A stretch of DNA of 18,030 bases. It comes from Pseudobdellovibrionaceae bacterium. Its GTDB lineage: Bacteria > Bdellovibrionota > Bdellovibrionia > Bdellovibrionales > Bdellovibrionaceae. Positions 1-18,030 of the stretch are shown piece after piece. The DNA lies in contig JBIKLL010000057.1 in assembly GCA_044359815.1 (NCBI GenBank), forward strand, positions 1-18,030, written 5' to 3'. A model generated the notes under the pieces. That model ran no database searches, was not told where the DNA came from, and saw nothing but the letters and a program-made list of their open reading frames with translations. The position numbers and the translations under genes are program-made. Position 1 is the stretch's first letter; every line of letters starts with the position of its first letter.

Positions 1-47
1 GCTTGCAGAATTGTCGCAATTTGAACATGGTGTTCACGCTTAAACAA
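1..47 (-). CDS. 5' fragment of a probable AbiEii/AbiGii-family nucleotidyltransferase toxin (runs off the window edge)
   Basis: Not in the ORF track. TTG at 47-45 overlaps the last codons and stop of the XRE gene, with GGGAG 7 nt upstream. It reads MFKREHHVQIATILQ(A), resembling the MF-x-R-x-HH-x-x-IA-x-x-L N-terminus I recall for AbiEii-like proteins encoded after this XRE type. Only 15 codons are visible. Confidence 0.6.
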   Translation of the reverse strand, partial: MFKREHHVQIATILQ

Positions 48-504
48 GCAAACGCTCCCGTCCAAAAGCAGCCAGTAGGTTATCTATAAACTCCTTTTCA
101 TCTAAATCCAGTTTTTTGATATCAACGTGACGCCAGTTTCTTTCGTATAATTCAAGCGCCTCTTGGGGACTTAACTCTTTGGTGCCCTTTAACTGCCAAG
201 CCAGCTTTTTCAATTGTCGATATTTTCCAATTCGAATTTTCCTTGGGAGCTTGGGGATTTGTTTTCTAGTTTTTAATTTGTCAGGATTTTGCAATTCAAT
301 TTCAAGCCCCAATGCCATGATCACACTCATGTATGCCCCCACAGAAACAGAGGCTTCCCCGCGCTCGATGCGATGAAGGGTGACTCTAGAAACTTCGGCG
401 GCCTCAGCTGTTGCAACACTGCTGATCTGTAAGTCTTTGCGTCGATCTCGAATAATCTGACCCAGTTTCCTCAGTGCCTTTTGATGGTTCAAATGTTGGC
501 TCAT
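40..504 (-). CDS. XRE-family helix-turn-helix regulator with C-terminal domain; probable antitoxin/autorepressor of an AbiE-like type IV TA pair
   Basis: LGQIIRDRRKDLQISSVATAEAAEVSRVTLHRIERGEASVSVGAYMSVIMALGL is a clear XRE/HipB-type HTH. The C-terminal 'LKKLAWQ...EALELYERNWRHVD' segment is typical of this subgroup. Confidence 0.85.
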   Translation of the reverse strand: MSQHLNHQKALRKLGQIIRDRRKDLQISSVATAEAAEVSRVTLHRIERGEASVSVGAYMSVIMALGLEIELQNPDKLKTRKQIPKLPRKIRIGKYRQLKKLAWQLKGTKELSPQEALELYERNWRHVDIKKLDLDEKEFIDNLLAAFGRERLLV

Positions 505-556
505 ATGTTACTTATTATATACAATATTGTTATTTTGTAAAGTATAAGAAACATAT
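503..556 (-). promoter_or_regulatory. sigma70 promoter overlapped by a 22-bp imperfect inverted repeat (putative autoregulatory operator)
   Basis: Minus strand reads TTTACA(541-536)-16 nt-TATAAT(519-514)-9 nt-ATG. Arms 503-524 and 535-556 match at 18/22 positions as reverse complements, with a 10-bp spacer. Confidence 0.75.
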
Positions 557-618
557 TTTTACATAGACCAAAGACCGTTTCCTCTTGATTTTCGCTTATA
601 TCAAATAAATGTTCCACC

Positions 619-643
619 AAAAGTGCTCACATCCTTGTGAACA
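619..643 (-). terminator. possible intrinsic terminator of the 657..1079 gene
   Basis: Minus strand TGTTCACA-agga-TGTGAGCA (8 bp with one G.U) followed by CTTTT, about 15 nt after the stop. Confidence 0.4.
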
Positions 644-656
644 AATTTGTTTCTTT

Positions 657-1079
657 TTATTCAAGCGGTGTGCAGTAGCCTTGAAAGTGTACGGTTTTAG
701 CTCCGACCTCGATCTTTAACATTGCGCGATCGTACCGAACCAAGTCGCTATTAAGCATCGGCACCATGTACACCAACGAAAATCCATTGCCAGTGTATTG
801 GGTGGACTTTGACCAAGGCTCAATCACCATCAAATGTTCGGCGCTATTGACGTCTCGATTTGCAACCGTTAACCATTCTGACAGATCTTTGTCGTATTTT
901 AACAAATTGATCGAATTCACCATCCCCCTGTCATTCATCTCAATCCGCAGATTTAACTGAAATCTGGCGTCTGCCATTTCAGTATCATCTTGTTCGCACA
1001 TCACAATGTCTTTCATGATGTAATCCGGTTGCGCTTGCGCCGACAGCGCAAGCAGTGTTGTTAGTAGTATCGTTTTCAT
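657..1079 (-). CDS. hypothetical secreted protein (140 aa)
   Basis: Strong RBS (AAGGAGGGG), Sec signal peptide MKTILLTTLLALSAQA and two Cys near the ends of the mature protein. No family recognised. Confidence 0.8.
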   Translation of the reverse strand: MKTILLTTLLALSAQAQPDYIMKDIVMCEQDDTEMADARFQLNLRIEMNDRGMVNSINLLKYDKDLSEWLTVANRDVNSAEHLMVIEPWSKSTQYTGNGFSLVYMVPMLNSDLVRYDRAMLKIEVGAKTVHFQGYCTPLE

Positions 1080-1336
1080 TTCCCCTCCTTAAATTAGGTG
1101 TTTGTGAGGAGGGAATATACTGATGGATTTTCGAGATACAATTTTGTAATTGGAAAGTTATTATGTGGTTTTTGAATACCGAAAAAATTGAAGCGCCACA
1201 CCCGGTGAGGAATTGTGGAGTTTCCTAATAATAAATCCCTCAATTTTAAAATAATGGTCCGAAAGACCTCCGACTAAAAAGTAATCCGGATTTTTCAAAA
1301 ATATTTTTTCAATTGTTTGCTTTGCAAGGCCGGCTG

Positions 1337-1364
1337 AAATAACAAAGGCGCATTGTTTTGCGCC
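1337..1364 (-). terminator. candidate terminator of an antisense (antitoxin) RNA, copy 1
   Basis: Minus strand GGCGCA-aaacaa-TGCGCC followed by TTTGTTATTT. It points opposite to the small ORF and lies upstream of its RBS. Confidence 0.5.
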
Positions 1365-1412
1365 CCCGTAAGATTTTTGGAGACCCCTTTCGGCAGAAAG
1401 GAGAATCTAAAA

Positions 1413-1523
1413 ATGAACAAACGAAACTATTTGTTTATTCGGAAAGTTTTATGGGTAACTAAAGACCTGTTAGTGATCCTTTTTCTTTTGTTAAAGGTCC
1501 TAACAATCCTAAGGCTCGTCTGA
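1413..1523 (+). CDS. small cationic-hydrophobic peptide (36 aa), candidate type I toxin; shorter allele
   Basis: AAGGAG at 1398-1403 and ATG at 1413. Sequence MNKRNYLFIRKVLWVTKDLLVILFLLLKVLTILRLV*. The frame continues past the TGA as PLILQRVQNW* to 1556, matching copy 2. Confidence 0.75.
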   Translation: MNKRNYLFIRKVLWVTKDLLVILFLLLKVLTILRLV

Positions 1524-1652
1524 CCGTTGATTCTCCAACGTGTTCAAAATTGGTGACTGATGCTCCAAGGCTGGACGTTGTACCGTCGAAAGGATGATCC
1601 ATGATGATTTGTACGGGGGCGCTTTTTGTGTGGATGATTTCGCGTTCACAAT

Positions 1653-1684
1653 CCTGCCTAAATTCAACCAAGAACTTAAGCAGG
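1653..1684 (-). terminator. 3' hairpin / possible terminator of the 1703..2398 gene
   Basis: Minus strand CCTGCTTAAGTTC-ttggtt-GAATTTAGGCAGG forms 13 bp with two G.U pairs (A.C mismatches on plus), 18 nt after the stop. The U-tract is weak. Confidence 0.5.
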
Positions 1685-1702
1685 GAATGTTTTTATTCAA
1701 TC

Positions 1703-2398
1703 TTATTTGGTGACGCGCTCAAAGATAGTTTGTTCTTTCAAGCATTCAGCATATTTGCTTTCTTCTACAAATTGAGCATAATCAAAAATTGTAACTAACC
1801 GATTACCCGATACTTTGAAACTAAATTCAAAGGATCTTTCTATGAATTGTTGATTGTTAGCATTAAATTCTTGTTCATAATCCGGGTATCCTGGACACTT
1901 AACTTCAGATTTAATCGGGATTGCTTTTATAAATCCTCCACTTACTTCGTATCTAGTCACACTGGAAATTTGGCATGAAAATGGTTTCTCATATTTTAGA
2001 AGATTTTTTAAAACACTAATACTATTGTTCATAGTTTCAATATCGGACTTCAATCTTTGTAATTCAGCTTCATCACATTTTTTGTAGGTGCCATCTTCAC
2101 ATTTTTTCAGTTCTGAAAGACTATTTATTAAACTTCTATTTGCAGTGACTAACCCACTTTCAATTTTGTTTTGAAAGTACCTAACTTTAAGTATCTCACT
2201 CGACCTCATTGAATCTAAGTCAAAACTCGCTTTTCGAAGTTCCAATACAATTTCATTTATTGAATCTGCAGCAAATACAACTTTGTTTTTTTCAATGCAT
2301 TTTTTTTCGACCATTTTCCAATTGCCTAAAAGTTCCTCGTTGTTAGCCAAAGCCAGGTTTGCAAACAACAAAACACTAATCGTAATAAACAATTTCAT
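1703..2398 (-). CDS. hypothetical secreted protein (231 aa from the likely ATG), possibly a lipocalin-like barrel with a coiled-coil insertion
   Basis: ATG at 2398 with GAGGAAGGA 7 nt upstream. Signal peptide MKLFITISVLLFANLALA, an early 'LLGNWKMV' GxW motif, six Cys and a central heptad-like helix. The DNA is visibly more AT-rich than the housekeeping genes. The fold is inferred. Confidence 0.8.
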   Translation of the reverse strand: MKLFITISVLLFANLALANNEELLGNWKMVEKKCIEKNKVVFAADSINEIVLELRKASFDLDSMRSSEILKVRYFQNKIESGLVTANRSLINSLSELKKCEDGTYKKCDEAELQRLKSDIETMNNSISVLKNLLKYEKPFSCQISSVTRYEVSGGFIKAIPIKSEVKCPGYPDYEQEFNANNQQFIERSFEFSFKVSGNRLVTIFDYAQFVEESKYAECLKEQTIFERVTK

Positions 2399-2446
2399 AA
2401 AATAATCCTTCCTCAAGGTTTTTTGAAATGAACCACAACCCTACTC

Positions 2447-2466
2447 AAAAAAAAAAAAAAAAAAAA
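2447..2466. repeat. A20/T20 homopolymer upstream of the 1703..2398 gene
   Basis: 20 consecutive A on plus, about 49 bp upstream of the ATG at 2398. Confidence 0.9.
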
Positions 2467-2469
2467 CCA

Positions 2470-2487
2470 CTGTCAGGAAAGTGACAG
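2470..2487. promoter_or_regulatory. CTGTCA-N6-TGACAG palindrome (CRP/FNR-family-like operator geometry, or a terminator stem before T20)
   Basis: ctgtca ggaaag tgacag, directly next to the homopolymer. Confidence 0.4.
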
Positions 2488-2608
2488 GTAATGGTTCTAC
2501 GATGATGTTTTTGACGACGGTGACACTTATGGGCAGCTGAAAAACAGATAGTTTAGATATTGGGTGATGCCTGCATTCAATTTTAGATCAAATCGAATTA
2601 AACTGCGC

Positions 2609-2628
2609 TCACTCCGGCGCCGGAGTGA
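2609..2628. repeat. perfect 20-bp GC-rich palindrome
   Basis: TCACTCCGGCGCCGGAGTGA is its own reverse complement. Confidence 0.9.
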
Positions 2629-2704
2629 AAATAAAAAAGCACCCCCGTAAAATCAGTCATGGATTGCCCCTTCGACGGTAAAACGTCCAGCCTTGGAGCA
2701 TCAG

Positions 2705-2848
2705 TCACCAATTTTGAACACGCTGGAGAATCAATGGTTGAACGAGCTTTAAGATTGTTAGGACCTTAATCAATAGAAAAAGAATCACCAACAGGTCTTT
2801 AGTTAACCATAAAACTTTCCGAATAAACAAATACTGTCGTTTATTCAT
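2705..2848 (-). CDS. small cationic-hydrophobic peptide (47 aa), candidate type I toxin; full-length allele
   Basis: Same RBS as copy 1. Sequence MNKRQYLFIRKVLWLTKDLLVILFLLIKVLTILKLVQPLILQRVQNW*. Of 13 codons differing from copy 1, 8 are synonymous, 4 conservative and 1 is CAA versus TGA. Confidence 0.8.
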   Translation of the reverse strand: MNKRQYLFIRKVLWLTKDLLVILFLLIKVLTILKLVQPLILQRVQNW

Positions 2849-2896
2849 TTTTAGATTCTCCTTTCTGCCGAAAGGGGTCTCCAAAAATCTTACGGG

Positions 2897-2923
2897 GGCG
2901 CAAACAATGCGCCTTTGTTATTT
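2897..2923 (+). terminator. candidate terminator of an antisense (antitoxin) RNA, copy 2
   Basis: GGCGCA-aacaa-TGCGCC-TTTGTTATTT. The stem and U-tract are identical to copy 1; the only change is a 1-nt indel in the loop. Confidence 0.5.
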
Positions 2924-3058
2924 CAGCAAGCCTTGCAAAGCAAACAATTGAAAAAATATTTTGGAAAAATCCGGATTACGTTTTGGTCGGAGGTCTTCCG
3001 GACCATTATTTTTATATAGTCCTCAATTTTTTGATTCCAATAAGCTTTTGTTTTGATT

Positions 3059-3232
3059 TAAATCCATCAATTTTAAAAATAATTTGAACTTCTTATTTTA
3101 AAAACGAGTTCGGACGTGAAGCTGCGCGGATGGTTTACATTTTTGATAATAAACTAATGCGCGCAGCTTTGCGCCCGCTGTTTGAGTTTTTAAAATAGAA
3201 AGTTCAAATTATTTTTTAAATTGAGGGATTTA
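3059..3232. repeat. long-hairpin repeat element, copy A (174 bp)
   Basis: Arms 3059-3105 and 3186-3232 are reverse complements at 43/47 positions. They enclose a GC-rich stem (CGGACGTGAAGCTGCGCG / CGCGCAGCTTTGCGCCCG). The core is shared with 8722-8809. Confidence 0.9.
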
Positions 3233-3245
3233 GTATTAGGAAACT

Positions 3246-3272
3246 CCACCACATCCTCATCGGATGTGGCGG
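3246..3272 (-). terminator. hairpin downstream of fadE (probable terminator / 3' stabiliser)
   Basis: Minus strand CCGCCACATCC-gatga-GGATGTGGTGG, 11 bp with one G.U, 20 nt after the fadE stop. The U-tract is poor. Confidence 0.55.
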
Positions 3273-3292
3273 TATATACGGAATTAAACAGA

Positions 3293-5728
3293 TTAGACGG
3301 TGTTGGCTTTAAATTCTGCTTCAGTGAAATCGTCGACCTGTATGGCGTCATATCTGACAGCCGCAGATTCTTTGATTAAAGCGTATTCTTCGGCAGTGAT
3401 CACGCCAGCATTTTTTGCGTCTTCCATGGCCTCTGGTCCCTTTTTCTTGGGGATTTTCTGAGCCTTGATAGCAGCGCGGATTTTGCGGTCAGCAGCCTCT
3501 GCTTTCAAAGTCACAACCATTGCATGATCCAATTTTGCCATCTGCTCTGTCGCAGTATTTTTAGGAAGGTATATTCCCTCAGTCAGCCTTTCACGATGTT
3601 CAAGGTCATTAAGAATGGAAACCACGACTCTGGATCCCAAACCATCACTGCCTTGTGAACCAATCGAATTGATTCGCGACCAACCACCCATCCAGCCTTT
3701 GAAAAACCAACGAAGCCCTGGGACCTTGATGTTGTCATAGATTCCGTCAAAAGCTTTTTGAATCTGCGACAAATTGTGTTTCAAAACAAAATCCACCATT
3801 GGCAAATCATCAGGTCTGCGTCCTTCAGCCTCGTACCTGCGTAAAACTGCACAACTGAAATACATATATGCCAAAATATCTGCAAAACGACCTGTGATTT
3901 TTTCTCGGAATTTCAATGAACCGCCCAAGGCACCCATAGCAATATCCGCTAAAATCGCAAAACTTGCTGAAGCCCACGATAGCCTTCGGTAATATTTTGC
4001 AGTCGGCCCAGACACTGGCGACGATGCCAAATATCCCCGAGTGAAACTCAACAACAAAGCTCTAAAGGAATTCCTGACGATATGACCGATATGACCCCAA
4101 AAAGCGGCATCGAAAGCTTTTAAATCATTTGCTTCAACTGCAGCCACTTCTTTATAAGCATAAGGATGTGCTCGCAAAGCGCCCTGACCAAATACGATTA
4201 AAGTTCTGGTTAAAATATTGGCTCCCTCAACTGTGATACCAATCGGAGTTCCAATATAAATTTGCGCTAGCAAATTTTTTGGTCCCAATGAAATTCCAGC
4301 TCCACCCAAAATATCCATAGCATCAGTAACACAGGCTCGACCCAGTTCCGTCGTATAGTATTTTACCATCGCTGTAATCACTGGTGGTTTGATACCTTTA
4401 TCTAAAGCTCCAAGCGTGTATCTGCGCATGCCTTCCAGACCATAAGTAAATGCAAAAATTCTGGCCAATGGCTCTTCAACGCCTTCAAACTTACCAATGC
4501 TGACACCAAATTGTTGTCTGATCACCGAATGTGCTGAACAAACTCGTGTCGCTAATTTACAAGCGCCCACTGTTTGCGCTGGCAATGAAATACCTCGGCC
4601 AGCAGCCAAACATTCCATCAACATCAGCCAACCCTTACCTGCGTAATCTGTTCCACCAACGATAGCATCGATGGGAACCACAACGTCTTTGCCTTGGGTC
4701 GGACAGTTATAAAACGGCACGCCCAATGGATCATGACGATTACCTAACACCACACCTTTGGTGCTGGATGGAATCAATGCACAAGTGATTCCTAAATCCT
4801 CACCCTTACCCAATAAATTTTTTGGATCGCGCAGTTTGAAAGCTAAACCAATAACCGTCGCCACAGCTGCCAGAGTGATCCATCGTTTGTTCCAGTTTAA
4901 TCTGATATACAGTTTTCCGTCTTCTCCCTTAAATATTTCACCACTTGACGTGATGGCTCCTGCATCCGATCCAGCCAATGGCTCGGTCAAACCGAAACAA
5001 GGGACCTCTATACCCTGAGCCAATCTGGGCAGGTAATGTCTTTTTTGTTCTTCGGTACCATAGTGAATTAATAATTCTGCAGGTCCCAATGAATTGGGCA
5101 CCATTATAGTAACACAGGCCGGGATGGATCGGCTGGCCAGTTTTTGCACGACTTCAGAGTGAGCCATAGCTGTAAATCCCAGTCCGCCGTATTCCTTAGG
5201 AATAATCATCCCGAAAAATTTTTCTTTTTTGATGTAATCCCAGATTTCTTTTTCAAGCTCTCGGGTCTTCCAGACCTTCCATGAATCAATCATTGCACAG
5301 AGTTTATCAACAGGTCCCGCCATAAAGGTTTTTTCTTCTTGGGTTAACTGGGGATAAGGTTCTGCAAGAATTTTTTTAAAATCAGGTTTTCCAGAAAATA
5401 AATCTTTTTCAACCCAAACCACTCCTGCATCCAAAGCGGTGCGCTCTGTTTCAGAGATTTTGGGCATTATACCCCTCATGACTTTCATCACCAGACTTGT
5501 GACCAACATCGATCTGACAGGCTTAATTAAAAACAGCGCAAAAAAAGCTGCGGCTGCAATCATCACATTGACAGAAGCTCCGAATCCATACAGCAGAGCT
5601 AAATCTGCTACCGCCCACAAAATTAATGGGCTTCCCGTGTATCCCAAAATCAAGGTGATTAAAACCGCGCCTAAACTGGCTGCCAAACAAAATTCATTTA
5701 AAAATCCGTAGTAGGGCAATCCTTCCAT
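3293..5728 (-). CDS. fadE: acyl-CoA dehydrogenase, long FadE type
   Basis: 811 aa with N-terminal TM segments, ISETERTALDAG, MVPNSLGPAELL, CFGLTEPLAGSDA, ITVEGANILTR and C-terminal IQVDDF. RBS GAGGAG. Confidence 0.95.
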   Translation of the reverse strand: MEGLPYYGFLNEFCLAASLGAVLITLILGYTGSPLILWAVADLALLYGFGASVNVMIAAAAFFALFLIKPVRSMLVTSLVMKVMRGIMPKISETERTALDAGVVWVEKDLFSGKPDFKKILAEPYPQLTQEEKTFMAGPVDKLCAMIDSWKVWKTRELEKEIWDYIKKEKFFGMIIPKEYGGLGFTAMAHSEVVQKLASRSIPACVTIMVPNSLGPAELLIHYGTEEQKRHYLPRLAQGIEVPCFGLTEPLAGSDAGAITSSGEIFKGEDGKLYIRLNWNKRWITLAAVATVIGLAFKLRDPKNLLGKGEDLGITCALIPSSTKGVVLGNRHDPLGVPFYNCPTQGKDVVVPIDAIVGGTDYAGKGWLMLMECLAAGRGISLPAQTVGACKLATRVCSAHSVIRQQFGVSIGKFEGVEEPLARIFAFTYGLEGMRRYTLGALDKGIKPPVITAMVKYYTTELGRACVTDAMDILGGAGISLGPKNLLAQIYIGTPIGITVEGANILTRTLIVFGQGALRAHPYAYKEVAAVEANDLKAFDAAFWGHIGHIVRNSFRALLLSFTRGYLASSPVSGPTAKYYRRLSWASASFAILADIAMGALGGSLKFREKITGRFADILAYMYFSCAVLRRYEAEGRRPDDLPMVDFVLKHNLSQIQKAFDGIYDNIKVPGLRWFFKGWMGGWSRINSIGSQGSDGLGSRVVVSILNDLEHRERLTEGIYLPKNTATEQMAKLDHAMVVTLKAEAADRKIRAAIKAQKIPKKKGPEAMEDAKNAGVITAEEYALIKESAAVRYDAIQVDDFTEAEFKANTV

Positions 5729-5763
5729 CGTGTACTCCTCATGCTGTGTTTTTCTTCTTGAAT

Positions 5764-5792
5764 AGTGTGCGACTAATGGATTTTAGGGTCAA
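5764..5792 (-). promoter_or_regulatory. candidate sigma70 promoter of fadE
   Basis: TTGACC-17 nt-CACACT on minus. Confidence 0.4.
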
Positions 5793-5793
5793 T

Positions 5794-6669
5794 CTAGTTC
5801 TGACATTTAGGACACCAATAGACAGAGCGGCCCGTTAAGATTTTGTGTTTTATTTTTGTGTTACACAGGACACAGTTTTGCCCTTTGCGATCGTAAACCT
5901 GATGGCGATTCTGAAAATCCCCCTTTATCCCATCCACCGAATGAAAATCATCAATACTTGACCCACCGGCCAGTATGGATTCAGCTAAAATTTCTCGAAT
6001 GTGCTTAAGCAACAGGCTGACATGACTCATCTTAAGTCTAGCGGCTGGCTTGAGTGGATTAATTTGTGCCCTAAACAGCGCTTCCGAAGCGTAGATGTTT
6101 CCCACTCCACACAACACACTTTGATCCAACAAAACATTGCGAATGGGGCTTTGCTTGTTGCTGATTTTTTGAAAAACTTCCGAATCGATGTTTTGCTGCA
6201 ACAGGGGATCAGGCCCCAAAATCTTATAAAATCTGTTTTGCCCTAAACTGTCGGCCAAACACACGTCCACGTATCCAAACCTGCGCGGATCATTATAAAT
6301 AAAATAGCGGTTAGCGATTTTTAAAAACAAATGATCGTGGTTTTTCAAATCTGGCTGCTGTTGCACACGCCAGTTGCCCGTCATTCCTAAATGCGACAGT
6401 ATCACATGATTTTCGAATTCAAAAATCAGATATTTACCCTTGCGATTAATGGTCAGAAGTTTTTCACCAATCAATTTTTTGAGACTCTTGCCGGGAATTC
6501 TGAATCTTAAATCAGGTCTAAATAATTTCACTTCTTGCAGGAAAGATTGCGACGTATTTTTTAAATCAATATTTGCCTGATGATTATTCTGCAAATCCGA
6601 ATCTGATTTTAAACTAAGATTTTTTAAAAGTCCCTGTCGGACGATTTCGACTTCTGCTAATTCTGGCAT
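5794..6669 (-). CDS. mutM: formamidopyrimidine-DNA glycosylase / AP lyase (Fpg)
   Basis: N-terminal MPELAEVE, RKGKYL, HLGMTG, DPRRFG, H2TH motif GVGNIYASEALF and a C-terminal CxxC...CxxC zinc finger. Confidence 0.96.
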   Translation of the reverse strand: MPELAEVEIVRQGLLKNLSLKSDSDLQNNHQANIDLKNTSQSFLQEVKLFRPDLRFRIPGKSLKKLIGEKLLTINRKGKYLIFEFENHVILSHLGMTGNWRVQQQPDLKNHDHLFLKIANRYFIYNDPRRFGYVDVCLADSLGQNRFYKILGPDPLLQQNIDSEVFQKISNKQSPIRNVLLDQSVLCGVGNIYASEALFRAQINPLKPAARLKMSHVSLLLKHIREILAESILAGGSSIDDFHSVDGIKGDFQNRHQVYDRKGQNCVLCNTKIKHKILTGRSVYWCPKCQN

Positions 6670-6777
6670 TGGGCTTATGTAAACTAGGGTTTTAGAAATG
6701 ACAAATTAAAGTCTTCCAAAAAAGGCGCTTTTCTTTGTTCTGAATTAATCCTATTAATTCCCTGATTCCAATTGAGG

Positions 6778-7821
6778 CTAAAATGTCTTGGCGTCGATGA
6801 CAAAGCGGTATTTAACTTGGCTTTTTAGAACCCTCTCGTAGGCTTCGTTGATTTTATCAGCCCCGATCAACTCGATGTCTGAGAAAACTTTTTTCTTGGC
6901 GCAAAAATCCAACATCTCCTGAGTTTCCTTGATCCCACCAATTAATGAACCGGTTAAACGCTTACGCCCGCCGATCAATGAAAATGCCGCAATTTTTGCT
7001 GGCTCTGGCGGCACACCCACAAGCACCATGGTTCCATCGATTTTTAGCGCTGCTAAATAAGGCGCAAAATCATGAACCGCCGATACTGTGTCAATTATCA
7101 AATCAAAATAAAACTGCAATTTTGAAAAATTATTTAAATCTTTTGAATACACAAAATGTTTTGCACCTAATTTTTTAGCATCGCTTTGTTTGTCCATCGA
7201 AGTGCTGAACACCGTGACTTCAGCCCCCATGGCCTTTGCCAATTTTACGGCCATGTGCCCAAGCCCACCCAATCCAACCACGCCGACCTTGGAACCCTTT
7301 TTGGTATTGTAACGTTTTAGTGGCGAATACGTTGTAATGCCCGCGCACAGCAACGGAGCAATACGCTCAAGAGGCTGGCCCTTTTTGATTTTCAGAGTGT
7401 ACTTTTCCTTGACCGTGATGTGAGTGGAATACCCCCCAAAGGTAGGAGTCTTATTATCCATTTCGGTGCTGTTGTAGGTGAACACACATTTTTTCTGGCA
7501 AAACTGTTCTTCGTTGGATTTGCAGCTTTCGCATTTGCCACAAGAATCCACGAAACACCCAACGCCGGCCGAATCACCAATTTTAAATTTTTTGACTTTT
7601 TTCCCAACCCTAATGACCTGTCCCACAATTTCGTGACCAGGCACGCAGGGATAAGCAGTCGGTCCCCATTCGCTGCGTGCAGTGTGGATATCCGAATGAC
7701 AGATTCCACAGTGGGATATCTGAATCACCACATCGTCAGGATTGGGTTCTCGCCTTTCGATTGTAATTGGCTGCAAAGGACTGGTTGCGGATTTATTGGC
7801 GAAGGCTTTTGTTTGTATCAT
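6778..7821 (-). CDS. Zn-dependent NAD(P)-dependent alcohol dehydrogenase (cinnamyl alcohol dehydrogenase / YahK-like)
   Basis: CGICHSD, PGHEIVG, structural-Zn CxxCxxC...C, APLLCAGITTYSPL, GLGGLGHM and YRFVID. Confidence 0.95.
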   Translation of the reverse strand: MIQTKAFANKSATSPLQPITIERREPNPDDVVIQISHCGICHSDIHTARSEWGPTAYPCVPGHEIVGQVIRVGKKVKKFKIGDSAGVGCFVDSCGKCESCKSNEEQFCQKKCVFTYNSTEMDNKTPTFGGYSTHITVKEKYTLKIKKGQPLERIAPLLCAGITTYSPLKRYNTKKGSKVGVVGLGGLGHMAVKLAKAMGAEVTVFSTSMDKQSDAKKLGAKHFVYSKDLNNFSKLQFYFDLIIDTVSAVHDFAPYLAALKIDGTMVLVGVPPEPAKIAAFSLIGGRKRLTGSLIGGIKETQEMLDFCAKKKVFSDIELIGADKINEAYERVLKSQVKYRFVIDAKTF

Positions 7822-7827
7822 GCGCGC

Positions 7828-7899
7828 AGACTAATTTGATTTTTTTTAAAACTCAAGCCCCAGCACTTTGTTGACATTGAGTCAGAACTGACAAATAGT
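7828..7899. promoter_or_regulatory. divergent sigma70 promoters, both close to their start codons
   Basis: Minus: TTGAGT(7856-7851)-17-TAGTCT(7833-7828)-6 nt-ATG. Plus: TTGACA(7871-7876)-17-AATAGT(7894-7899)-10 nt-ATG. Neither gene has an SD. Confidence 0.5.
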
Positions 7900-7909
7900 T
7901 TTCAGTCTG

Positions 7910-8608
7910 ATGTCACAACGTAAAGAAAATGGCTTTATAAATATCATCGTCAATGTCGTGATTCCGGTTTTTGTGCTGAACAAACTGTCAGAAAAACTGG
8001 GACCTGGAAACGCCCTGATTCTGGCGCTGATGTTCCCTTTGGGGTACGGGATTTATGACTGGATTTACCGCAAAAAAATCAACGCCATTTCAGCCCTGGG
8101 CTTGCTGAATGTGACCATCACTGGCGGATTGGCCCTGCTGGGTTTGGGTGGAATTTGGTTTTCACTCAAAGAGGCCGCCTTCCCGTTGTTGATTGGGATT
8201 TTTGTTTGGTTTTCAGCCAATTCTGAAAATCCTTTTATAAAAATGCTTTTAATCAATCCACAGGTCATGCATGTTGATAAAATTGAATCAAAGCTGAAAG
8301 AGCTCAATAACCAATCACTGTTTATGCAACATTTGTCGACATCCACCCGACTACTGGCCCTATCGTTTTTTATCTCTGCTGTTTTTAATTTCACCTTGGC
8401 GCAGTTTATCTTCCTGCCCTTGCCTGAGGGACTGCCTCAAACAGAAAAATCATTGCTGCTTAATCAACAGATAGCGCAAATGACTTCATGGTCATTTTTG
8501 GTGATTATGGTGCCTTCGATGCTGTTTTTGATTTTTATTTTTTATCATTTGCTCAATGGCATTAAAAAACTCACTCAACTGACTATGGAAGACATCGTCA
8601 GAAACTAA
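7910..8608 (+). CDS. integral membrane protein, VC0807-family-like
   Basis: About 6 TM helices. 'NIIVNVVIPVFVLNKLS', 'ALMFPLGYG', 'KEAAFPLLIG' and 'SFFISAVFNFTLA' resemble that family as I recall it. Confidence 0.75.
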   Translation: MSQRKENGFINIIVNVVIPVFVLNKLSEKLGPGNALILALMFPLGYGIYDWIYRKKINAISALGLLNVTITGGLALLGLGGIWFSLKEAAFPLLIGIFVWFSANSENPFIKMLLINPQVMHVDKIESKLKELNNQSLFMQHLSTSTRLLALSFFISAVFNFTLAQFIFLPLPEGLPQTEKSLLLNQQIAQMTSWSFLVIMVPSMLFLIFIFYHLLNGIKKLTQLTMEDIVRN

Positions 8609-8612
8609 CTTA

Positions 8613-8913
8613 AAAAGAGACCGTACAACTTTTTCTGTCTACACCGCAGAATGAAATCAAAAACTTATAAAGCCAAAACTGCAATTTCAAAAAAAATAAT
8701 ATTACTTTGCAGTCTTAAAAGCGAGTTCGGACGTGAAGCTGCGCGGATGCCTTAAATGCTTTGATTGCACGAATGCGCGCATCTTTGCGCCCGCTGTTTG
8801 AGTTTTTAAGACTGCAAAGTAATATTATTTTTAGAAATTGCAGTTTTGGCTTTTATATTCTTTAGACCGTTTTATCCTGCGGTGTAGACAGAAAAAGTCG
8901 TACGGTCTCTTTT
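8613..8913. repeat. long-hairpin repeat element, copy B (301 bp), filling a convergent intergenic gap
   Basis: Outer arms 8613-8656 and 8870-8913 match at 41/44; inner arms ~8669-8722 and 8802-8853 are near perfect. Core blocks match copy A at 28/28 and 37/38. Confidence 0.92.
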
Positions 8914-9614
8914 CAGAAATCATCATCTATGATCGGTGGCGGTGGGATTTCATCAAAATCTCCCATTGGCGGCGGTGGCGGTGGCGGAATGTCGGGTTCA
9001 AAAAACTCTGGCGCAGGTGGTGGCGGTGGTGCTGATTCAGAATAACTGGGCGGTACATAGGATCCACCGGATGATCCTGTTGGCCCCCCAGATCCTGTGG
9101 TGCCCAGCTTAAATTTACTCATCCAATTAGTTTTGCCATAAAGCGACCGTTTTTCTGGATCTGCCCTGTCTTTATCCTGATCCAATCCGTATTCGGTTTC
9201 AGGGCTTAGCTTGACAGCTTCGGCTTTCTCCCGCGCACGCTTGCGCTGTTCTGAATACTGCCGTTGTCTGGCCTGTTGAGCTTCCCATTTTTTGTATCTG
9301 ACTTCGCGATCTGCTTTATACTCTGGCCCCGTATCGTCTACGGACTTTTTTTGCTTTTTGCGATCAATCTGGTGCTGAATGATGGCTTTTTTTTGTTGCT
9401 CATCCCATTTTGCTTTTGATTTGCGAACATCAGCGGCCCCTGATTCGCGAGCCTTATCAAAATTTTTATTAGCCTTTTGCTTTTCTTGAAAGCCCTTAAG
9501 TCGTTGAGATTCAGAAAACAAGGGCTCAAAAGTTTCTGCAGCCAATGTCACCGAACAATTGCTAATGATGAAAATCAAAAAAAAGGCTTTCACAGGCTTC
9601 AGAATAAGAGTCAT
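8913..9614 (-). CDS. hypothetical secreted protein: charged coiled coil, Gly/Ser linker, poly-Pro/acidic tail
   Basis: Hydrophobic N-terminus ending ...SVTLA, a K/R/E/Q-rich helix and tail PPPPPPAPEFFEPDIPPPPPPPMGDFDEIPPPPIIDDDF. Confidence 0.8.
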   Translation of the reverse strand: MTLILKPVKAFFLIFIISNCSVTLAAETFEPLFSESQRLKGFQEKQKANKNFDKARESGAADVRKSKAKWDEQQKKAIIQHQIDRKKQKKSVDDTGPEYKADREVRYKKWEAQQARQRQYSEQRKRAREKAEAVKLSPETEYGLDQDKDRADPEKRSLYGKTNWMSKFKLGTTGSGGPTGSSGGSYVPPSYSESAPPPPPAPEFFEPDIPPPPPPPMGDFDEIPPPPIIDDDF

Positions 9615-9678
9615 TGCCGCACCCTACAAGAGCTTTCCTACTGGACCTTTCATAGATTCTGTATGATAGTCGCCGCCT

Positions 9679-10680
9679 ATGACTGAAGTCCTGATATTTT
9701 TAGCCAAGTTTGCCATTACTTTTGTTTTTTTAGCGGCTCTGATTTTGCTGATCGCAATGATTGTTTACAAAAGCTCTCATAAATCAGAAATGGATTTGGA
9801 ATTACTGAATGATAAATATGATGATTTCAAAACGGCTTTGCATTCTTTCACGATGCAAAAGTCAGAATTTAAAAAGGAAAAAAAGAAACTTAAAAAAGAC
9901 CGCAAAAAAGTCGAAGATTTTAAAAACACAGTTTTTGTCATTGATTTTAAAGGCGACATCAAAGCTTCTCAAACAGAGAATTTACGAGAAGAGGTCACGG
10001 CCGTTTTGCAAGTCGCCACCCCTACTGATGAAGTTGTGATCAAGATTGAAAGCCCTGGAGGTGTCGTACATGGGTATGGACATGCAGCTTCGCAACTTCA
10101 GCGCATCCGAGAAATCAATATCCCATTAACGGTTTGTGTTGATGAAGTTGCTGCCAGTGGCGGCTACTTGATGGCTTGCGTTGGCAATAAAATTTTGGCT
10201 TCGCCCTTTGCCATTGTAGGATCCATTGGGGTTTTGGCTCAGGTGCCCAATCTAAATCGATTGCTTAAAAAATATGATGTGGATTTCAAGGAATACACGG
10301 CGGGCGAATACAAACGAACTGTGACTATGCTGGGCGAAATCACCCCGCAGAAAGAGCAAAAATTTATTGAAAGACTGCAGGACACCCACGTTTTGTTTAA
10401 GGATTTTGTCCTTAAGAACCGCCCCCAGATGGATTTAGCCAAAGTTGCCACGGGGGATTTTTGGTTTGGCGAAGAGGCTATAAAACTGGGACTGATTGAT
10501 CAAATCAAAACCAGTGATGATTATTTGATGAGCAAAGCAGCTGAAAAGTCTCGCATCTTAAAAATCAAAATCGCTCACAAAAAACCATTAACAGACAAGT
10601 TATCAGACCTTGTGGGCAAGGCTTTGAAGCAAGCTCTGGAAGCGACTTTGCATCCCTTGAACAATCTAAAATTTCCTTAA
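9679..10680 (+). CDS. sohB: protease SohB (peptidase S49)
   Basis: N-terminal TM, FKGDIKAS, ESPGGVVHGYG, VAASGGYLMAC, GSIGV and TAGEYKRT. Confidence 0.95.
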   Translation: MTEVLIFLAKFAITFVFLAALILLIAMIVYKSSHKSEMDLELLNDKYDDFKTALHSFTMQKSEFKKEKKKLKKDRKKVEDFKNTVFVIDFKGDIKASQTENLREEVTAVLQVATPTDEVVIKIESPGGVVHGYGHAASQLQRIREINIPLTVCVDEVAASGGYLMACVGNKILASPFAIVGSIGVLAQVPNLNRLLKKYDVDFKEYTAGEYKRTVTMLGEITPQKEQKFIERLQDTHVLFKDFVLKNRPQMDLAKVATGDFWFGEEAIKLGLIDQIKTSDDYLMSKAAEKSRILKIKIAHKKPLTDKLSDLVGKALKQALEATLHPLNNLKFP

Positions 10681-10761
10681 AGAATTGTTTTCTTTGCATT
10701 TTATTTTTGTACAGGTTAGACCTTTCTTGTGTTTTGCAAACAATGGAGGAGGGGCCAAGCG

Positions 10762-11742
10762 TTGCAAGAAACAATTCTCAAGGTTGAAAACCTCGAAACA
10801 ACATTTTTTTCTAAACTCGGCGCATTCAAGGCTGTTAATAATCTATCCTACGAAATTAAAAAAGGTGAAACCCTGGGAATTGTGGGGGAATCCGGCTGCG
10901 GAAAATCCGTCACTTCTTTTTCGTTAATGCGTTTGATTGAAAAGCCTGGTCGCATCACTCAAGGCAAAGCCATCCTGAAGGGTCGTGATTTGTTGTCACT
11001 GCCGATGGAAACCATGCAACAGGTTCGTGGTGGCGATATGGCTATGATTTTTCAAGAGCCCATGACAGCTTTGAATCCAGTATTGACCATTGGTGATCAA
11101 ATAGACGAACAATTTATCCGTCACAAAAAGGTTTCTAAGGCCGAGGCCAAAGACCGCTCCATTGAGATGTTAAAACTGGTGGGAATTCCGTCACCCGAAA
11201 GTCGCTACACTAATTATCCTCATCAATTGTCGGGCGGCATGCGACAGCGAGCTATGATTGCCATGGCACTTTCCTGTGATCCCAGCTTGCTGATCGCCGA
11301 TGAACCTACAACAGCTTTAGATGTGACCATACAAGCACAAATTTTAGAACTGATTCAGAATCTGCAAGAAAAATTTAAAATGACAGTGCAGTTTATCACT
11401 CACGATTTGGGCGTGATATCCGAGGTCAGTGACCGCGTGATGGTTATGTATGGCGGGCAAATGTGTGAAAGCGCAAAAGCCCAAGATATTTTCAAACATC
11501 CTCTGCATCCTTACACTCATGCATTGATTTCGTCGCGACCCAAGTTTGGGCAAAGGGTCGCAAGGCTGAGCACTATTGAAGGATCAGTGCCTGCACCTCA
11601 CGAATTGCCAAAAGGTTGTCCGTTTTTTAACAGATGCCCCAAGGCGCAAAATCACTGTCAGCATGAACGACCACCAATAACCAATTTATCAAAAGACCCT
11701 AGCAGTCCCCATCTGGTGGCCTGCTTTCACCCAATGGATTAA
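10762..11742 (+). CDS. oppD: oligopeptide/dipeptide ABC transporter ATP-binding subunit (OppD/DppD type)
   Basis: Walker [31 protein letters not shown] and a C-terminal Cys motif. Likely start is TTG at 10762 after GGAGGAGGGG. Confidence 0.93.
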
Positions 11743-11743
11743 G

Positions 11744-12733
11744 ATGGAAACAATTTTAGAAGTTAAAAATCTTAAAAAATACTTCCCGATCAAAAAGGGT
11801 TTACTGCTGAAAGAAGTCGGGCAAGTCAAAGCCGTCGATGATGTGAGCTTTTTCGTTAAAAAAGGCGAAACCCTGGGCTTAGTCGGCGAATCCGGTTGCG
11901 GCAAATCCACTTTGGGCAGAACCTTGATCAGATTATATGAACCCACAGGTGGTCAGGTTTCATTTAAGGGCAATGATTTTTTAAAAATCAGTGGAACAGA
12001 ACTGCGCAATCAGCGAAAAGATTTGCAGATGATTTTTCAAGATCCCTTTGCATCCCTGGATCCACGAATGACTGTGGGCAGGATTTTGGCTCAGCCTTTT
12101 GATATTCATACCAAGATGAATGCCGAAGAAATCGAAGATCGTATCAAAGAACTGCTGGCAATCGTTGGTTTAAAACCGTCTCATATAAATCGCTATCCGC
12201 ACGAATTTTCTGGCGGGCAAAGACAACGCATCTGTATTGCCAGGGCCATTGCCCTGAATCCAAGCCTGATCATCGCTGATGAACCTGTCAGCGCTTTGGA
12301 TGTTTCAATCCAGGCTCAGATTTTAAATTTGCTGAAAGACCTTCAGCAAAAACTGGATTTAACTTATGTTTTTATTTCTCATGATCTGTCTGTCATCGAG
12401 CATCTGTGTGATCGGATTGCTGTGATGTATTTGGGAAAAATAGTCGAAATCGCTTCACGCGACGAACTGTTTGCAGCCCCTAAACATCCTTACACTCAAG
12501 CTCTGCTGGCAGCTATCCCTAGGGTGGGTGAAGGCAAAAAGAAAATAACAAAATCACTGAGCGGGGAAGTTCCCAGTCCTATCAATCCCCCCTCAGGATG
12601 TGCCTTTCACCCCAGATGTTCTAAGAAAATTGAGCCTTGCAATAAATTGCAACCTCAATTGTCAGGGAAACAAGATCATAAAACAGCTTGCTGGCTTTAT
12701 GACGAAAAAAACCCTGAGCGAATGGTAACGTAA
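11744..12733 (+). CDS. oppF: oligopeptide/dipeptide ABC transporter ATP-binding subunit (OppF/DppF type)
   Basis: [35 protein letters not shown] and GCAFHPRC. Confidence 0.93.
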
Positions 12734-12776
12734 TAAAACTCAAGACTGAGTCTTGAAAAGTAAAAGGAGTTTATCA

Positions 12777-14471
12777 ATGAAAACAGTTTTAAGATTTTTA
12801 ATACCGATGGTTTTACTGTCGCTGACGGCCCAAGCCGCTCCGACAAAAATGACCAATGAAGAATTCAAAATTGGAATCAGCCAAGAGTTTGAAACTTTAA
12901 ACCCTATGATTATGCAAATGGTTGCATCCAATTATTTGTACAGCATGGTTGGCAGATCGTTTGTAACCATGGATACAAATGGGAAATGGGTCCCGCAATT
13001 GGCAAAAACCATCCCCAGTTTGGAAAATGGATTAGCCAAAATCACAACGGTGGCTGGCAAAAAAACCCTGACTGCAGTTTGGGAAATCCAAGACAAAGCT
13101 CAATGGGGCGACGGAACTCCGCTAACCTGTGCGGATTTTCAGTTTTCCCGTGAAGTGGCTGAAAACAATAACGTCAGCCTAGGCTCAAAAGAAAACTACA
13201 CCATGGTTGCGAAAATTGATTTTGACCCTGCACTTCCTAAAAAATGCACATTAACCTACGACAAACCCAGATGGGATTTTTATCAAATGCCACAGTTTTT
13301 CCCTCTGCCTAGGCACTTGGAAGAGCCCGTTTACAAAAAATATGGAAACGAAAAAGAAGGCTACGAAAAAAATTCGAACTACAACAAAAACCCAACGCTT
13401 GAGGGTTTGTACAACGGCCCTTACAAAGTCGCAGAAGTTAAATTGGGAAGCCACATTGCATTTGCACCCAATCCTAAATTTTGGGGCGAACAACCTAAAA
13501 TCAAAAAAGTTATTGTAAAAATAATTCCAAACACAGCAACATTGGAAGCCAACTTAAGATCAGGCACTATTGATACTGTGGCTTCATTAGGATTTACTTT
13601 TGACCAAGCGATTTCGTTTGAGAAAAAAGTCAAATCAGAAGGCCTTCCCTACAATGTGTTATTTAAACCAAGCCTGACCTATGAACACATTGATTTAAAC
13701 TTGGACAATCCAATTTTAAAAGATGTGAAAGTCCGCAAAGCCTTAGTTTACGCCTTGAACCGACAAGAATTAGTTCAAGCACTCTTTAATGGCAAACAAC
13801 CTGCGGCCATTCACAATTTAGCTACCATTGATCCTTGGTACACAGCTGACCCTAAAAAAATTGTGATTTACAATTACGACAAGAAAAAATCGGGTCAATT
13901 GCTGGATGAAGCTGGCTGGAAACTGGGACCTGATGGTTACAGATACAAAGAAGGTCAAAAACTCTCATTACAATTAATAACTACTGCTGGAAACAAAGTC
14001 CGCGAAACAGTGCAGACCTTTTTACAGAGCCAATGGAAGTCCGTTGGTGTTGAAATTGCTCTGAAGACAGAACCAGCCCGAGTGTTTTTTGGCGAAACTA
14101 TGAACAAAAGAAAATATTCTGCCATGGGCATGTATGCTTGGGTTTCTTCACCTGAGAGCAATCAAAAACCTCAGTTTCATTCAAGCAACATACCGTCTGA
14201 AAAAAATGGTTTTTCAGGTCAAAACCAACCGGGCTGGAGAAACCCCAAGGTGGATGAATTAACAGAAAAAATTGAAGTTGAGTTTGATCCCAAAAAACGA
14301 GCTGAATTAGCGCAAAAGATTTTGTGGCATTACACAGACGATGTGCCCGTGATTCCATTGTATTACAGATCTGACATTGCTGTGGTCCCAACGGCTCTGA
14401 AAAACTTTGCTTTGCCTGGACATCAATTTTCTGAAACCAATTCTATTGAAGGGTGGACGATTCAACAATGA
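12777..14471 (+). CDS. oppA: peptide ABC transporter substrate-binding protein (family 5)
   Basis: ATG at 12777 after AAGGAG, signal peptide ending AQA, WGDGTPLT, NGPYKV, VRKAL...LNRQ and LLDEAGW. Confidence 0.92.
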   Translation: MKTVLRFLIPMVLLSLTAQAAPTKMTNEEFKIGISQEFETLNPMIMQMVASNYLYSMVGRSFVTMDTNGKWVPQLAKTIPSLENGLAKITTVAGKKTLTAVWEIQDKAQWGDGTPLTCADFQFSREVAENNNVSLGSKENYTMVAKIDFDPALPKKCTLTYDKPRWDFYQMPQFFPLPRHLEEPVYKKYGNEKEGYEKNSNYNKNPTLEGLYNGPYKVAEVKLGSHIAFAPNPKFWGEQPKIKKVIVKIIPNTATLEANLRSGTIDTVASLGFTFDQAISFEKKVKSEGLPYNVLFKPSLTYEHIDLNLDNPILKDVKVRKALVYALNRQELVQALFNGKQPAAIHNLATIDPWYTADPKKIVIYNYDKKKSGQLLDEAGWKLGPDGYRYKEGQKLSLQLITTAGNKVRETVQTFLQSQWKSVGVEIALKTEPARVFFGETMNKRKYSAMGMYAWVSSPESNQKPQFHSSNIPSEKNGFSGQNQPGWRNPKVDELTEKIEVEFDPKKRAELAQKILWHYTDDVPVIPLYYRSDIAVVPTALKNFALPGHQFSETNSIEGWTIQQ

Positions 14472-15439: not shown

Positions 15440-15449
15440 GGTGAATAAA

Positions 15450-16700: not shown

Positions 16701-16809
16701 TTTACCTTTTTTTGAATTGATTATTTACAGACACAAAATCTAGTCAGATTTTTTCAAATTGCTTTATGAGTTTTTAATCACTTACAGCCCATTTATTTCA
16801 AAACAATAC

Positions 16810-16825
16810 AGGCACGGTACTTGTA
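16810..16825 (+). promoter_or_regulatory. candidate sigma54 (-24/-12) promoter
   Basis: AGGCACG-GTAC-TTGTA against consensus TGGCACG-N4-TTGC(A/T). GG-N10 spacing is correct, but the -12 element is GT rather than GC. Confidence 0.4.
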
Positions 16826-16899
16826 ACATACCTTTTTGAGAGTCTAGTTTTATTTTTTGCAAAGCCTTGGCTTTAAGCCTTAGGCAGAAAGGAGAGATT

Positions 16900-17964: not shown

Positions 17965-18030
17965 TTTTATTTCTGAGCTGAGTTTGAAGTGAGTACCAGT
18001 TTTGTGAAGGGTTTAACCAAAACTTTGCCA

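Follow-up and report, generated by a model that had tools for sequence, protein, structure and literature searches.

The window analysed here is a stretch of 18,030 nucleotides (nt) from a Pseudobdellovibrionaceae bacterium (GenBank assembly GCA_044359815.1, contig JBIKLL010000057.1, positions 1 to 18,030 of the forward strand), which constitutes contig C54 of the draft genome G000 (2.95 Mb, 41% GC, 125 contigs). Two long hairpins, copies A and B of a repeat family, lie between its genes, copy A beyond the 3' end of an acyl-CoA dehydrogenase gene and copy B between two convergent open reading frames (ORFs). An original prediction, made from the letters of this DNA alone, proposed that both hairpins contain a near-invariant asymmetric core carried on arms that change in sequence yet keep pairing, and that they may represent an undescribed non-autonomous element or a structured RNA. 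Here, we describe the architecture of this family in the host genome, the linkage of its ends to a gene for a putative REP-associated tyrosine transposase (RAYT; REP, repetitive extragenic palindrome), the position of its copies, the layered conservation of its parts, and a wider family of hairpins that carry the same central junction. We favour, with reserve, a reading in which a RAYT mobilises a REPIN-like repeat (REPIN, a REP doublet forming a hairpin) whose centre is a hairpin module of wider distribution.

Results

Copies A and B belong to a dispersed family of composite hairpins

Copies A and B share a 28-nt block, CGAGTTCGGACGTGAAGCTGCGCGGATG (3105-3132 and 8722-8749, 28 of 28 positions identical), and a 38-nt block (3156-3193 and 8772-8809) with a single G/T difference, just as had been predicted; a repeat search of the window recovered the shared blocks as direct-repeat families D1 and D2. 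The same search returned the arms as inverted repeats, I3 in copy A (3059-3105/3186-3232, 47 nt, 91%) and I4 (8613-8656/8870-8913), I6 (8692-8720/8804-8832) and I8 (8669-8694/8828-8853) in copy B. Each copy folds into one long hairpin, of -76.5 kcal/mol for A (z -11.5) and -160.9 kcal/mol for B (z -19.8), and no shuffled sequence folded as well as either. In both folds an 18-bp GC-rich stem stands over the asymmetric loop GAGTT / CTGTTTGA, and the scaffold CAATTT-N1-3-AAAAATAAT-N14-TTAAAA(A/G)C and the proposed arm lengths were confirmed for both copies. The N14 segment had been described as differing between the loci while being mirrored on the opposite arm; its paired divergence stands, but the segment is not hypervariable, being a homologous, diverged part of the inner arm of which TTTACTTTGCAG-like versions are found in several copies.

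The host genome contains 19 copies of the core and two divergent ones (C4:63183 and C38:1256; labels of the form Cn:position, e.g., C8:9504, refer to its contigs), so that A and B represent neither a chance pattern nor a case confined to two copies. In the 19-copy alignment 36 of the 60 predicted pairs stay paired through changes on both sides, and the proposal of a dispersed family with a near-invariant asymmetric core and changing, still paired arms is supported by these copies. For 15 of these 19 copies, the arms can be aligned over a length of about 88-182 nt. From the outside inward, the element consists of an outer block of about 40 nt (AAAAGAGACCGTACGACTTTTTCTGTCTACAGCGCA...), a linker of about 20-30 nt, which occurs in two non-complementary types across copies and is often unpaired, an inner arm of about 55 nt, and the core of 84-87 nt, beyond which outer block, linker and inner arm recur in mirror image. 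The full element measures about 300 bp and is represented in the window by copy B (Table 1). Copy A was considered as a short type of the element and rejected as such, being a copy that lacks the outer blocks and whose right arm is truncated.

Outer blocks are present on both sides in 14 of the 19 copies. Among the others, C68:3811 and C88:8820 have no outer block, C80:9040 has a degenerate block on one side, and C106:31741 has lost its right arm. The block itself occurs 53 times in the genome (25 forward and 28 reverse, with up to 3 mismatches; 0 for the reversed sequence used as control), and at least 26 of the 53 match a 27-mer exactly. Inverted doublets of the block, with and without a core, number 21 and span 114-400 bp; nine short doublets, of 71-166 bp, lack a core, and there are a few solo copies. 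With the same tolerance, the outer block was found in 0 of 150 relatives, which are genomes of the same family that were searched for the outer block, a covariance model, RAYT and a second family of Y1-like proteins. Within the block, GTAG occurs only as part of TGTAGAC and not as a head before a palindrome. Palindromy continues just 1-7 bp past the outer blocks, and the arms are homologous between copies; a derivation of the arms from neighbouring genes was therefore rejected for this genome.

The outermost 12-14 nt of the block (AAAAGAGACYG..) are often tandemly repeated just outside the element (C20:49745-49775, C106:36490-36520 and, beside the RAYT-like gene, C8:10266-10305), and these tandem repeats may be a footprint of end cutting and joining. 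At C8:14560-14665, a solo partial outer block stands about 70 nt from a 14-nt fragment of the left stem of the core, CATCCGCGCAGCTT, and is probably the wreck of a composite copy.

An origin of the arms as fold-back artefacts of assembly was considered. Four lake-water DNA runs from four studies give identical arm-plus-core pieces, including contigs with 0 differences over 8613-8812, 8632-8812, 2933-3125 and 3173-5878, and a fold-back artefact of a single assembly is excluded by this agreement among independent assemblies. The whole hairpin is spanned by no lake-water contig in the four runs, all of which break inside the hairpins; the full structure rests on the overlapping pieces together with the window's own assembly.

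At E values up to 1, the sole Rfam match in the window was a plant microRNA (miRNA) precursor, MIR1435 (E 0.12, 33 bits against a gathering score of 94). Six loci from relatives, searched at E up to 0.1, gave just sub-threshold miRNA and small nucleolar RNA matches that resemble chance. Literature searches found no description of such repeats in Bdellovibrio.

The outer block flanks a single RAYT-like gene

The best match to PF01797 in the host genome is a 211-amino-acid (aa) ORF at C8:9504-10136(-), a match that passes the cut-off of that model (E 5e-8). The gene is single-copy, giving one tblastn match in the genome. Its product matches the NCBIfam model REP_Tyr_transpos (NF047646, REP-associated tyrosine transposase) at E 3.2e-20, and its sole match in the PDB is TnpA-REP of E. 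coli (4ER8), in which HFH aligns with the HUH motif and YIYQNP with the tyrosine motif. A full outer block at C8:9475-9507 (+, 33/33) overlaps the stop codon of this gene, and an inverted 25-nt partial block at C8:10266-10290 (-, 25/25) lies 130 nt upstream of its start. Inverted blocks around a single HUH/Y1 gene are the arrangement of a RAYT, and no other gene in the genome has ends that match the element. The original prediction had recognised no known family in these hairpins, which holds for Rfam; a REP/REPIN-RAYT system was among the analogues it had set aside, and on this point it is not supported, as the outer block of copy B is the one that flanks the RAYT-like gene. The prediction had taken in only the core and inner arms.

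RAYT homologues were detected in 115 of the 150 relatives. A second Y1/HUH-like family, of 203 aa, has 10 matches in the host genome (L005-L011, e.g., C48:48186-48794), the eight closest being 87-93% identical, and is present in 96 of the relatives. It was rejected as a partner of the repeat: it is not flanked by the element, and it is missing from the motif-positive genomes G058, G022 and G009. Copies of the 203-aa family possess a conserved upstream region of about 60 nt, and several are flanked by simple tandem repeats like CTAACTAT x n.

Copies lie at the 3' ends of genes

The 19 local copies are distributed over 15 contigs, between unrelated genes and one per intergenic gap; 14 lie between convergent genes, 5 between tandem genes and none between divergent genes. 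For 28 copies in relatives the corresponding numbers are 12, 9 and 0, with a further 7 inside ORFs that are probably spurious. The stop codons of both neighbours fall 0-7 nt from the ends of the blocks, so that the gaps are filled almost exactly. The first A of the block is sometimes used by the stop codon (TGA-AAAGAGACC; compare window positions 8606-8615 and 8911-8915). Where the neighbouring genes are in tandem, the core is in sense orientation in 1 local case and antisense in 4, and in relatives in 4 and 5 cases, respectively. This position and the mixed orientation fit a DNA element tolerated at terminator sites and argue against an element of the sense-strand mRNA. Of the two natures first proposed, that of a non-autonomous element agrees with how the family behaves, and that of an RNA structure finds no support: the 14 tandem-gene cases, local and in relatives combined, comprise 5 with the core in sense and 9 with it in antisense orientation.

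Ends and core are conserved while arms need only pair

Between copies the inner arms are 69% identical and the cores 86%; within a copy the two inner arms are 89% complementary. The nearest relative of an arm is the second arm of the same copy in 14 of 18 copies. Neutral decay at an equal rate predicts equal divergence throughout the element; what is observed is that the ends and the tip are held and that the arms need only pair. Copies C2:3301 and C3:3116, whose flanks are unrelated, share 89% identity over 310 bp, indicating that the whole unit can reach a new locus.

The two strands of the hairpin may not be equivalent. Arm mismatches on the strand bearing GAGTTC are G.T rather than A.C in a ratio of 41:27 in the host genome (p 0.11) and of 35:19 in relatives (p 0.04). 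That strand also retains wobbles at three stem positions of the 19-copy alignment, and its predicted RNA fold is somewhat the more stable in both copies (-40.3 versus -36.8 kcal/mol in A; -34.0 versus -27.7 kcal/mol in B). These differences hint, weakly, that a single strand is the relevant one, whether as DNA or as RNA.

The metagenome contig L031 carries the site orthologous to C28:21621. Its flanks, block and inner arm are nearly the same and its core has the same orientation; the right-arm linker, of 31 nt, is of the other type. This switch of linker type points to patchy replacement inside the element.

The core junction is shared with hairpins of related genera

BLAST searches with the core gave 0 matches in 40 relatives, and the exact core pattern was found 0 times in a collection of genome contigs and in 1 metagenome contig, the ortholog of the C28 copy. 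A covariance model built from the core and 20-bp arms of the local copies matched 13 of the 150 relatives, from 8 genera, with scores of 28-59 bits, compared with 114-140 bits for the local copies. The reverse strands of the local palindromes themselves score 50-58 bits, so the score alone proves little, and it is the alignments that carry a shared signature: a variable arm, AAAAC, GAGTTC, an upper domain, GCTGTYYGAG, (GC)TTTT, and the complement of the arm. Among 34 matches in the 13 relatives, GAGTTC is exact in 31 and TGTYYGAR is found in all 34, counts that are partly circular as the matches were picked by the model. The full junction signature is present in 18 of the 19 local copies and in both C4:63183 and C38:1256, as well as in 30 of the 34 model-selected matches in relatives. 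Pattern matches on C13 and C34 of the host genome have no AAAAC lead-in. In relatives the upper domain ranges from about 12 to 74 nt, the smallest version being a capped hairpin of 12-14 nt, and the arms differ too.

The junction pattern was counted in relatives and in reversed controls. G058 yielded 10 matches, G119 6, G082 4 and G073 2, with 0-3 in the controls, and G022 yielded 20 with a control of 3. In named genomes the pattern gave 43 matches, against about 34 expected by chance; on visual inspection 13 of the 43 are real hairpins, 9 of them lying in Bdellovibrio-like or unclassified metagenome-assembled genomes (MAGs) and 4 in one MAG labelled WWE3. The latter (L067, L084, L094 and L098) are clean junction hairpins with 25-bp arms in a MAG assigned to candidate division WWE3 of the Candidate Phyla Radiation (CPR), and are either Bdellovibrio-like DNA binned in error or a sign that such hairpins do occur outside the group. 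Readings of the junction as a sigma-E-like promoter or as a canonical kink-turn were dropped on inspection, since the spacing varies and the G.A pairs do not stand beside the bulge.

Discussion

Qualified preference is given here to the reading that A and B are copies of a RAYT-mobilised, REPIN-like non-autonomous repeat, arranged around a lineage-wide hairpin module and acting as folded single-stranded DNA, the folded strand presumably being recognised by a protein. To judge from the sequence patterns, the RAYT would move or copy the unit by acting on its outer blocks once the element has folded into a single-stranded hairpin, which might happen, for instance, on the lagging-strand template. 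The 85-nt core with its inner arms would be an older hairpin module, belonging to a repeat superfamily that extends across the Bdellovibrio-like family and for which the junction AAAAC-GAGTTC ... GCTGTYYGAG-TTTT would be the recognition mark; in the host genome, this module may have become the centre of the RAYT's repeat. Selection among copies would then favour those with the intact ends and tip that proliferation needs and would demand of the arms only that they pair. The core, a GC clamp, probably nucleates the fold, and the folded strand is probably recognised, in a strand-specific way, at the asymmetric junction.

The element belongs to a familiar class of selfish intergenic repeats, of which it represents an undescribed variant. 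Most known REPIN-RAYT systems come from gamma-proteobacteria, where they consist of short doublets of REPs that fold on their own; a classical REP is a short, imperfect palindrome headed by GTAG or CGTC. REPINs and their RAYTs have been described for Pseudomonas and E. coli (Bertels & Rainey 2011, PMC3116915; PMC3337134), and a structure is available (PMC3479197). As far as these accounts go, the present family agrees with them in that inverted doublets of a short block form a hairpin, that the block flanks a single-copy HUH/Y1 gene in inverted orientation, and that the copies are extragenic, at the 3' ends of genes, with a block sequence specific to the lineage. It differs from the systems they describe in a block that does not fold alone, in a doublet of about 300 bp instead of roughly 100, in the conserved 85-nt structured core and inner arms that belong to a separate, wider hairpin family, and in a copy number in the tens, not hundreds.

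Other classes of bacterial repeat show partial likeness. The bacterial interspersed mosaic elements (BIMEs) of E. coli are mosaics of REPs with conserved inter-REP motifs, such as the L motif bound by integration host factor (IHF). Like them, the element is a mosaic of inverted REP-type ends around a conserved central motif and lies between convergent genes; its central module, however, is a long GC-rich hairpin with an asymmetric junction and not a short linear protein site. Palindromic repeats such as Correia/NEMIS, ERIC, RPE and RUP resemble miniature inverted-repeat transposable elements (MITEs) and are, like the present family, small, non-coding, dispersed, bounded by terminal inverted repeats, and foldable as one hairpin. 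For the present family, by contrast, no target duplication was seen and no parent insertion sequence of the DDE type was found in this genome, and its centre is among the most conserved parts, not the ends only. With the attC sites of integrons, which occur one per cassette in arrays beside the integron integrase, the hairpins share a structure kept while the sequence varies, asymmetric unpaired bases that mark the strand, and a variable apical length; they differ in being scattered and not in cassette arrays, and in a junction that lies mid-stem, above arms of 20-110 bp, and not at the base of the hairpin.

Several observations weigh against mobilisation of the composite unit by the RAYT. The score of the 211-aa protein against NF047646, 72.5 bits, is below the curated cut-off of 80. 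A lone 43-nt block is not a palindrome, its DNA folds reaching -1.4 kcal/mol (z 0.83, with 162 of 200 shuffles as good) and -1.2 kcal/mol (z about 0.8). One of the features that define classical REPs is therefore missing, and the block would act as a terminal inverted repeat, two copies pairing with each other. Five of the 19 copies, A, C68:3811, C80:9040, C88:8820 and C106:31741, do not have both outer blocks intact. Identity between whole elements does not exceed 80%, except in the C2/C3 pair, and their blocks are near-identical; with such diverged interiors, the blocks may be later additions or have been homogenised, and not have moved with the unit. At the ends of the element there is neither a target duplication nor a target motif. 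No insertion polymorphism was seen in the four lake-water runs, and the sole 'empty' site, described below, looks like a deletion. In relatives, the junction motif stands beside 0 of 22 inspected RAYT loci, for which reason the RAYT genes of relatives were rejected as its partners, and the junction-positive genomes G022, G004 and G064 gave no RAYT match. With junction hairpins in RAYT-negative genomes and away from RAYT loci, these hairpins are not dependent on the RAYT, and the composite looks like a RAYT, with its end blocks, that met an older hairpin module.

These last observations also bear on the possibility that the core hairpin is mobile in its own right, through an enzyme other than the RAYT, one arm being re-made from the other at each copying by template switching or snap-back, so that drifting arms would stay paired. 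The outer blocks would then be a younger repeat that colonised the flanks of the hairpin, or the block doublets would be its landing site. Such independent mobility, although unlikely in our judgement, would accommodate the junction hairpins of a genome without a detectable RAYT homologue (G022), their absence beside RAYT loci, the local copies without intact blocks, and blocks far more uniform than the interior of the element. It would also agree with the close kinship of the two arms of a copy, which in C80 match at 44 of 45 paired positions and reach 75% with the best arm of another copy, and with the altered linker at the orthologous site despite the same flanks and core orientation. No candidate enzyme was found for it in this analysis, however, the 203-aa Y1-like family being excluded as described above; inner arms that are homologous between copies are inherited and not made from local DNA; palindromy ends within a few base pairs of the blocks; and the pattern of identity within and between copies could equally arise from lost intermediate copies. 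In a further reading, which we consider quite improbable, the hairpin is a replicon that renews itself and is nicked or recognised at the junction (CGAG-TTC / TGTYY-GAG): an enzyme of the HUH type would open the folded strand there, and the 3' end would then copy one arm from the other, much as in the resolution of parvoviral hairpin termini, but on a bacterial chromosome. A replicon of this kind would explain why paired arms drift freely and why an arm is closest to its own partner, as well as the linker switch and the occurrence of the same junction on unrelated arms and upper domains across genera.

A role as RNA was weighed against the preferred DNA reading. The core might be a structured RNA with tandem sheared G.A pairs at its junction, serving either as a 3' element that stabilises or resembles a terminator or as a small RNA that binds a protein; its character as a DNA repeat would then be secondary. 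All copies lie at gene 3' ends, most of them between convergent genes where both strands are transcribed; wobbles are kept, as G.U, at three stem positions of the GAGTTC strand, which folds somewhat better as RNA in both copies and has the excess of G.T over A.C mismatches given above; in some minimal relatives the upper stem ends in a GAAA or GCAA loop; and CGAG opposite TGAG at the junction would fit the sequence rule for tandem sheared G.A pairs. We nevertheless hold an RNA function to be distinctly unlikely. The core has no consistent orientation to tandem genes here or in relatives, perfect stems of 100 bp are typical of palindromes in DNA and atypical of functional RNAs in bacteria, the length of the upper domain varies between 13 and 74 nt, Rfam returned no match, and the wobble excess is weak, G.T being tolerated in DNA hairpins too. 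It is very improbable, finally, that the family is a decaying palindromic relic devoid of function in cis, with a core that looks conserved only as the copies are young or GC-rich. The low copy number and the many degenerate or truncated copies (A, C80, C88:8820 and C106:31741) would suit such a relic, but the same copies keep near-identical blocks and cores far closer to one another than their arms are, and the junction is kept across at least 8 genera in surroundings that are all different.

What sets this repeat apart from described REPIN-RAYT systems is a RAYT-flanking block that does not fold by itself and is paired around a large conserved hairpin module, the junction signature of which is common to repeats in at least 8 genera of predatory Bdellovibrio-like bacteria. 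A named motif and a candidate enzyme offer a concrete handle on palindromes with conserved tips and free arms in this group. Should the arms really be re-copied, the repeat would have a new way to maintain itself; otherwise, it would be one more REP-like family. In either case its recognition is useful for annotation, given that these elements break assemblies and abut stop codons.

Other features of the window

Table 1. Parts of copies A and B, neighbouring genes, and the paralogous site in the window
Feature	Position	Strand	Evidence or remark
Copy B, complete composite element, 301 bp	8613..8913	+	Fold, I4/I6/I8; fills the gap between two convergent ORFs exactly
Copy B left outer block, REP-like end AAAAGAGACCGTAC...CTGTCTACA	8613..8649	+	blastn-short 94.6%
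Copy B left linker	8650..8668	+	Poor pairing with right linker 8854-8870; bulges in fold
Copy B left inner arm	8669..8722	+	Mirror = 8804-8853; I6, I8, alignment
Copy B core	8723..8806	+	5' junction GAGTTC, GC-rich stem with G.T wobbles, variable apical loop, 3' junction GCTGTTTGAG
Copy B right outer block, inverted	8871..8913	-	blastn-short 97.7%; last base overlaps stop codon of ORF 8913-9614(-)
Copy A, inner arms (47 nt) and core, without outer blocks	3059..3232	+	I3, fold
Copy A core	3106..3190	+	
204-bp stretch absent from the inverted paralogous segment	3014..3217	.	Bounded by 9-bp direct repeat AAAAATAAT (3005-3013, 3208-3216)
Paralogous site without the element	1215..1260	+	Reads ...AAATCCCTCAATTT-TAAAATAAT-GGTCC; about 23 nt of arm-like sequence left; I5, I2
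ORF, 232 aa, membrane-like	7910..8608	+	No Pfam match; stop codon 5 nt before copy B
ORF, 233 aa, proline-rich C-terminus	8913..9614	-	No Pfam match; converges on copy B
Acyl-CoA dehydrogenase gene, 811 aa	3293..5728	-	Copy A about 60 nt beyond its 3' end

Copy A lies within one arm of a large inverted duplication (about 1195-1627 versus 2634-3270; about 430 bp, 90-93% identical), the other arm of which lacks a 204-bp stretch. Contained in this stretch are the core, the inner portion of the right hairpin arm and the long left hairpin arm, the last being homologous to the 88-bp arms of C68:3811. The left paralog reads CAATTT-TAAAATAAT-GGTCC, and the right paralog reads CAATTT-AAAAAATAAT, then the 204 bp, then AAAAATAAT-GGTCC. 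The site at 1215-1260 was considered as a never-occupied site that would prove insertion and was rejected in that role: with about 23 nt of arm kept, it is read as the product of a deletion between the 9-bp direct repeats, an event that palindromes commonly undergo. A joint from 3008 to 3213 that skips the 204 bp occurs in all four lake-water runs and is attributed to contigs of the left paralog, not to polymorphism.

No tRNA or tmRNA gene was found in the window. In each of the four runs, summed contig depth rises to 66-283 at 8872-9095, where ORF 8913-9614 has a GGTGGCGG-rich end that codes for proline, and the jump probably reflects low-complexity sequence common to other organisms. The inverted duplication flanks a gene of 237 aa (1703-2416) with a signal-peptide-like N-terminus and no Pfam match, and each of its arms contains a GGAG-ATG start and a short hydrophobic ORF (1353..1523, +; 2705..2884, -). 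The segment around 1703-2416 could be invertible or recently duplicated.

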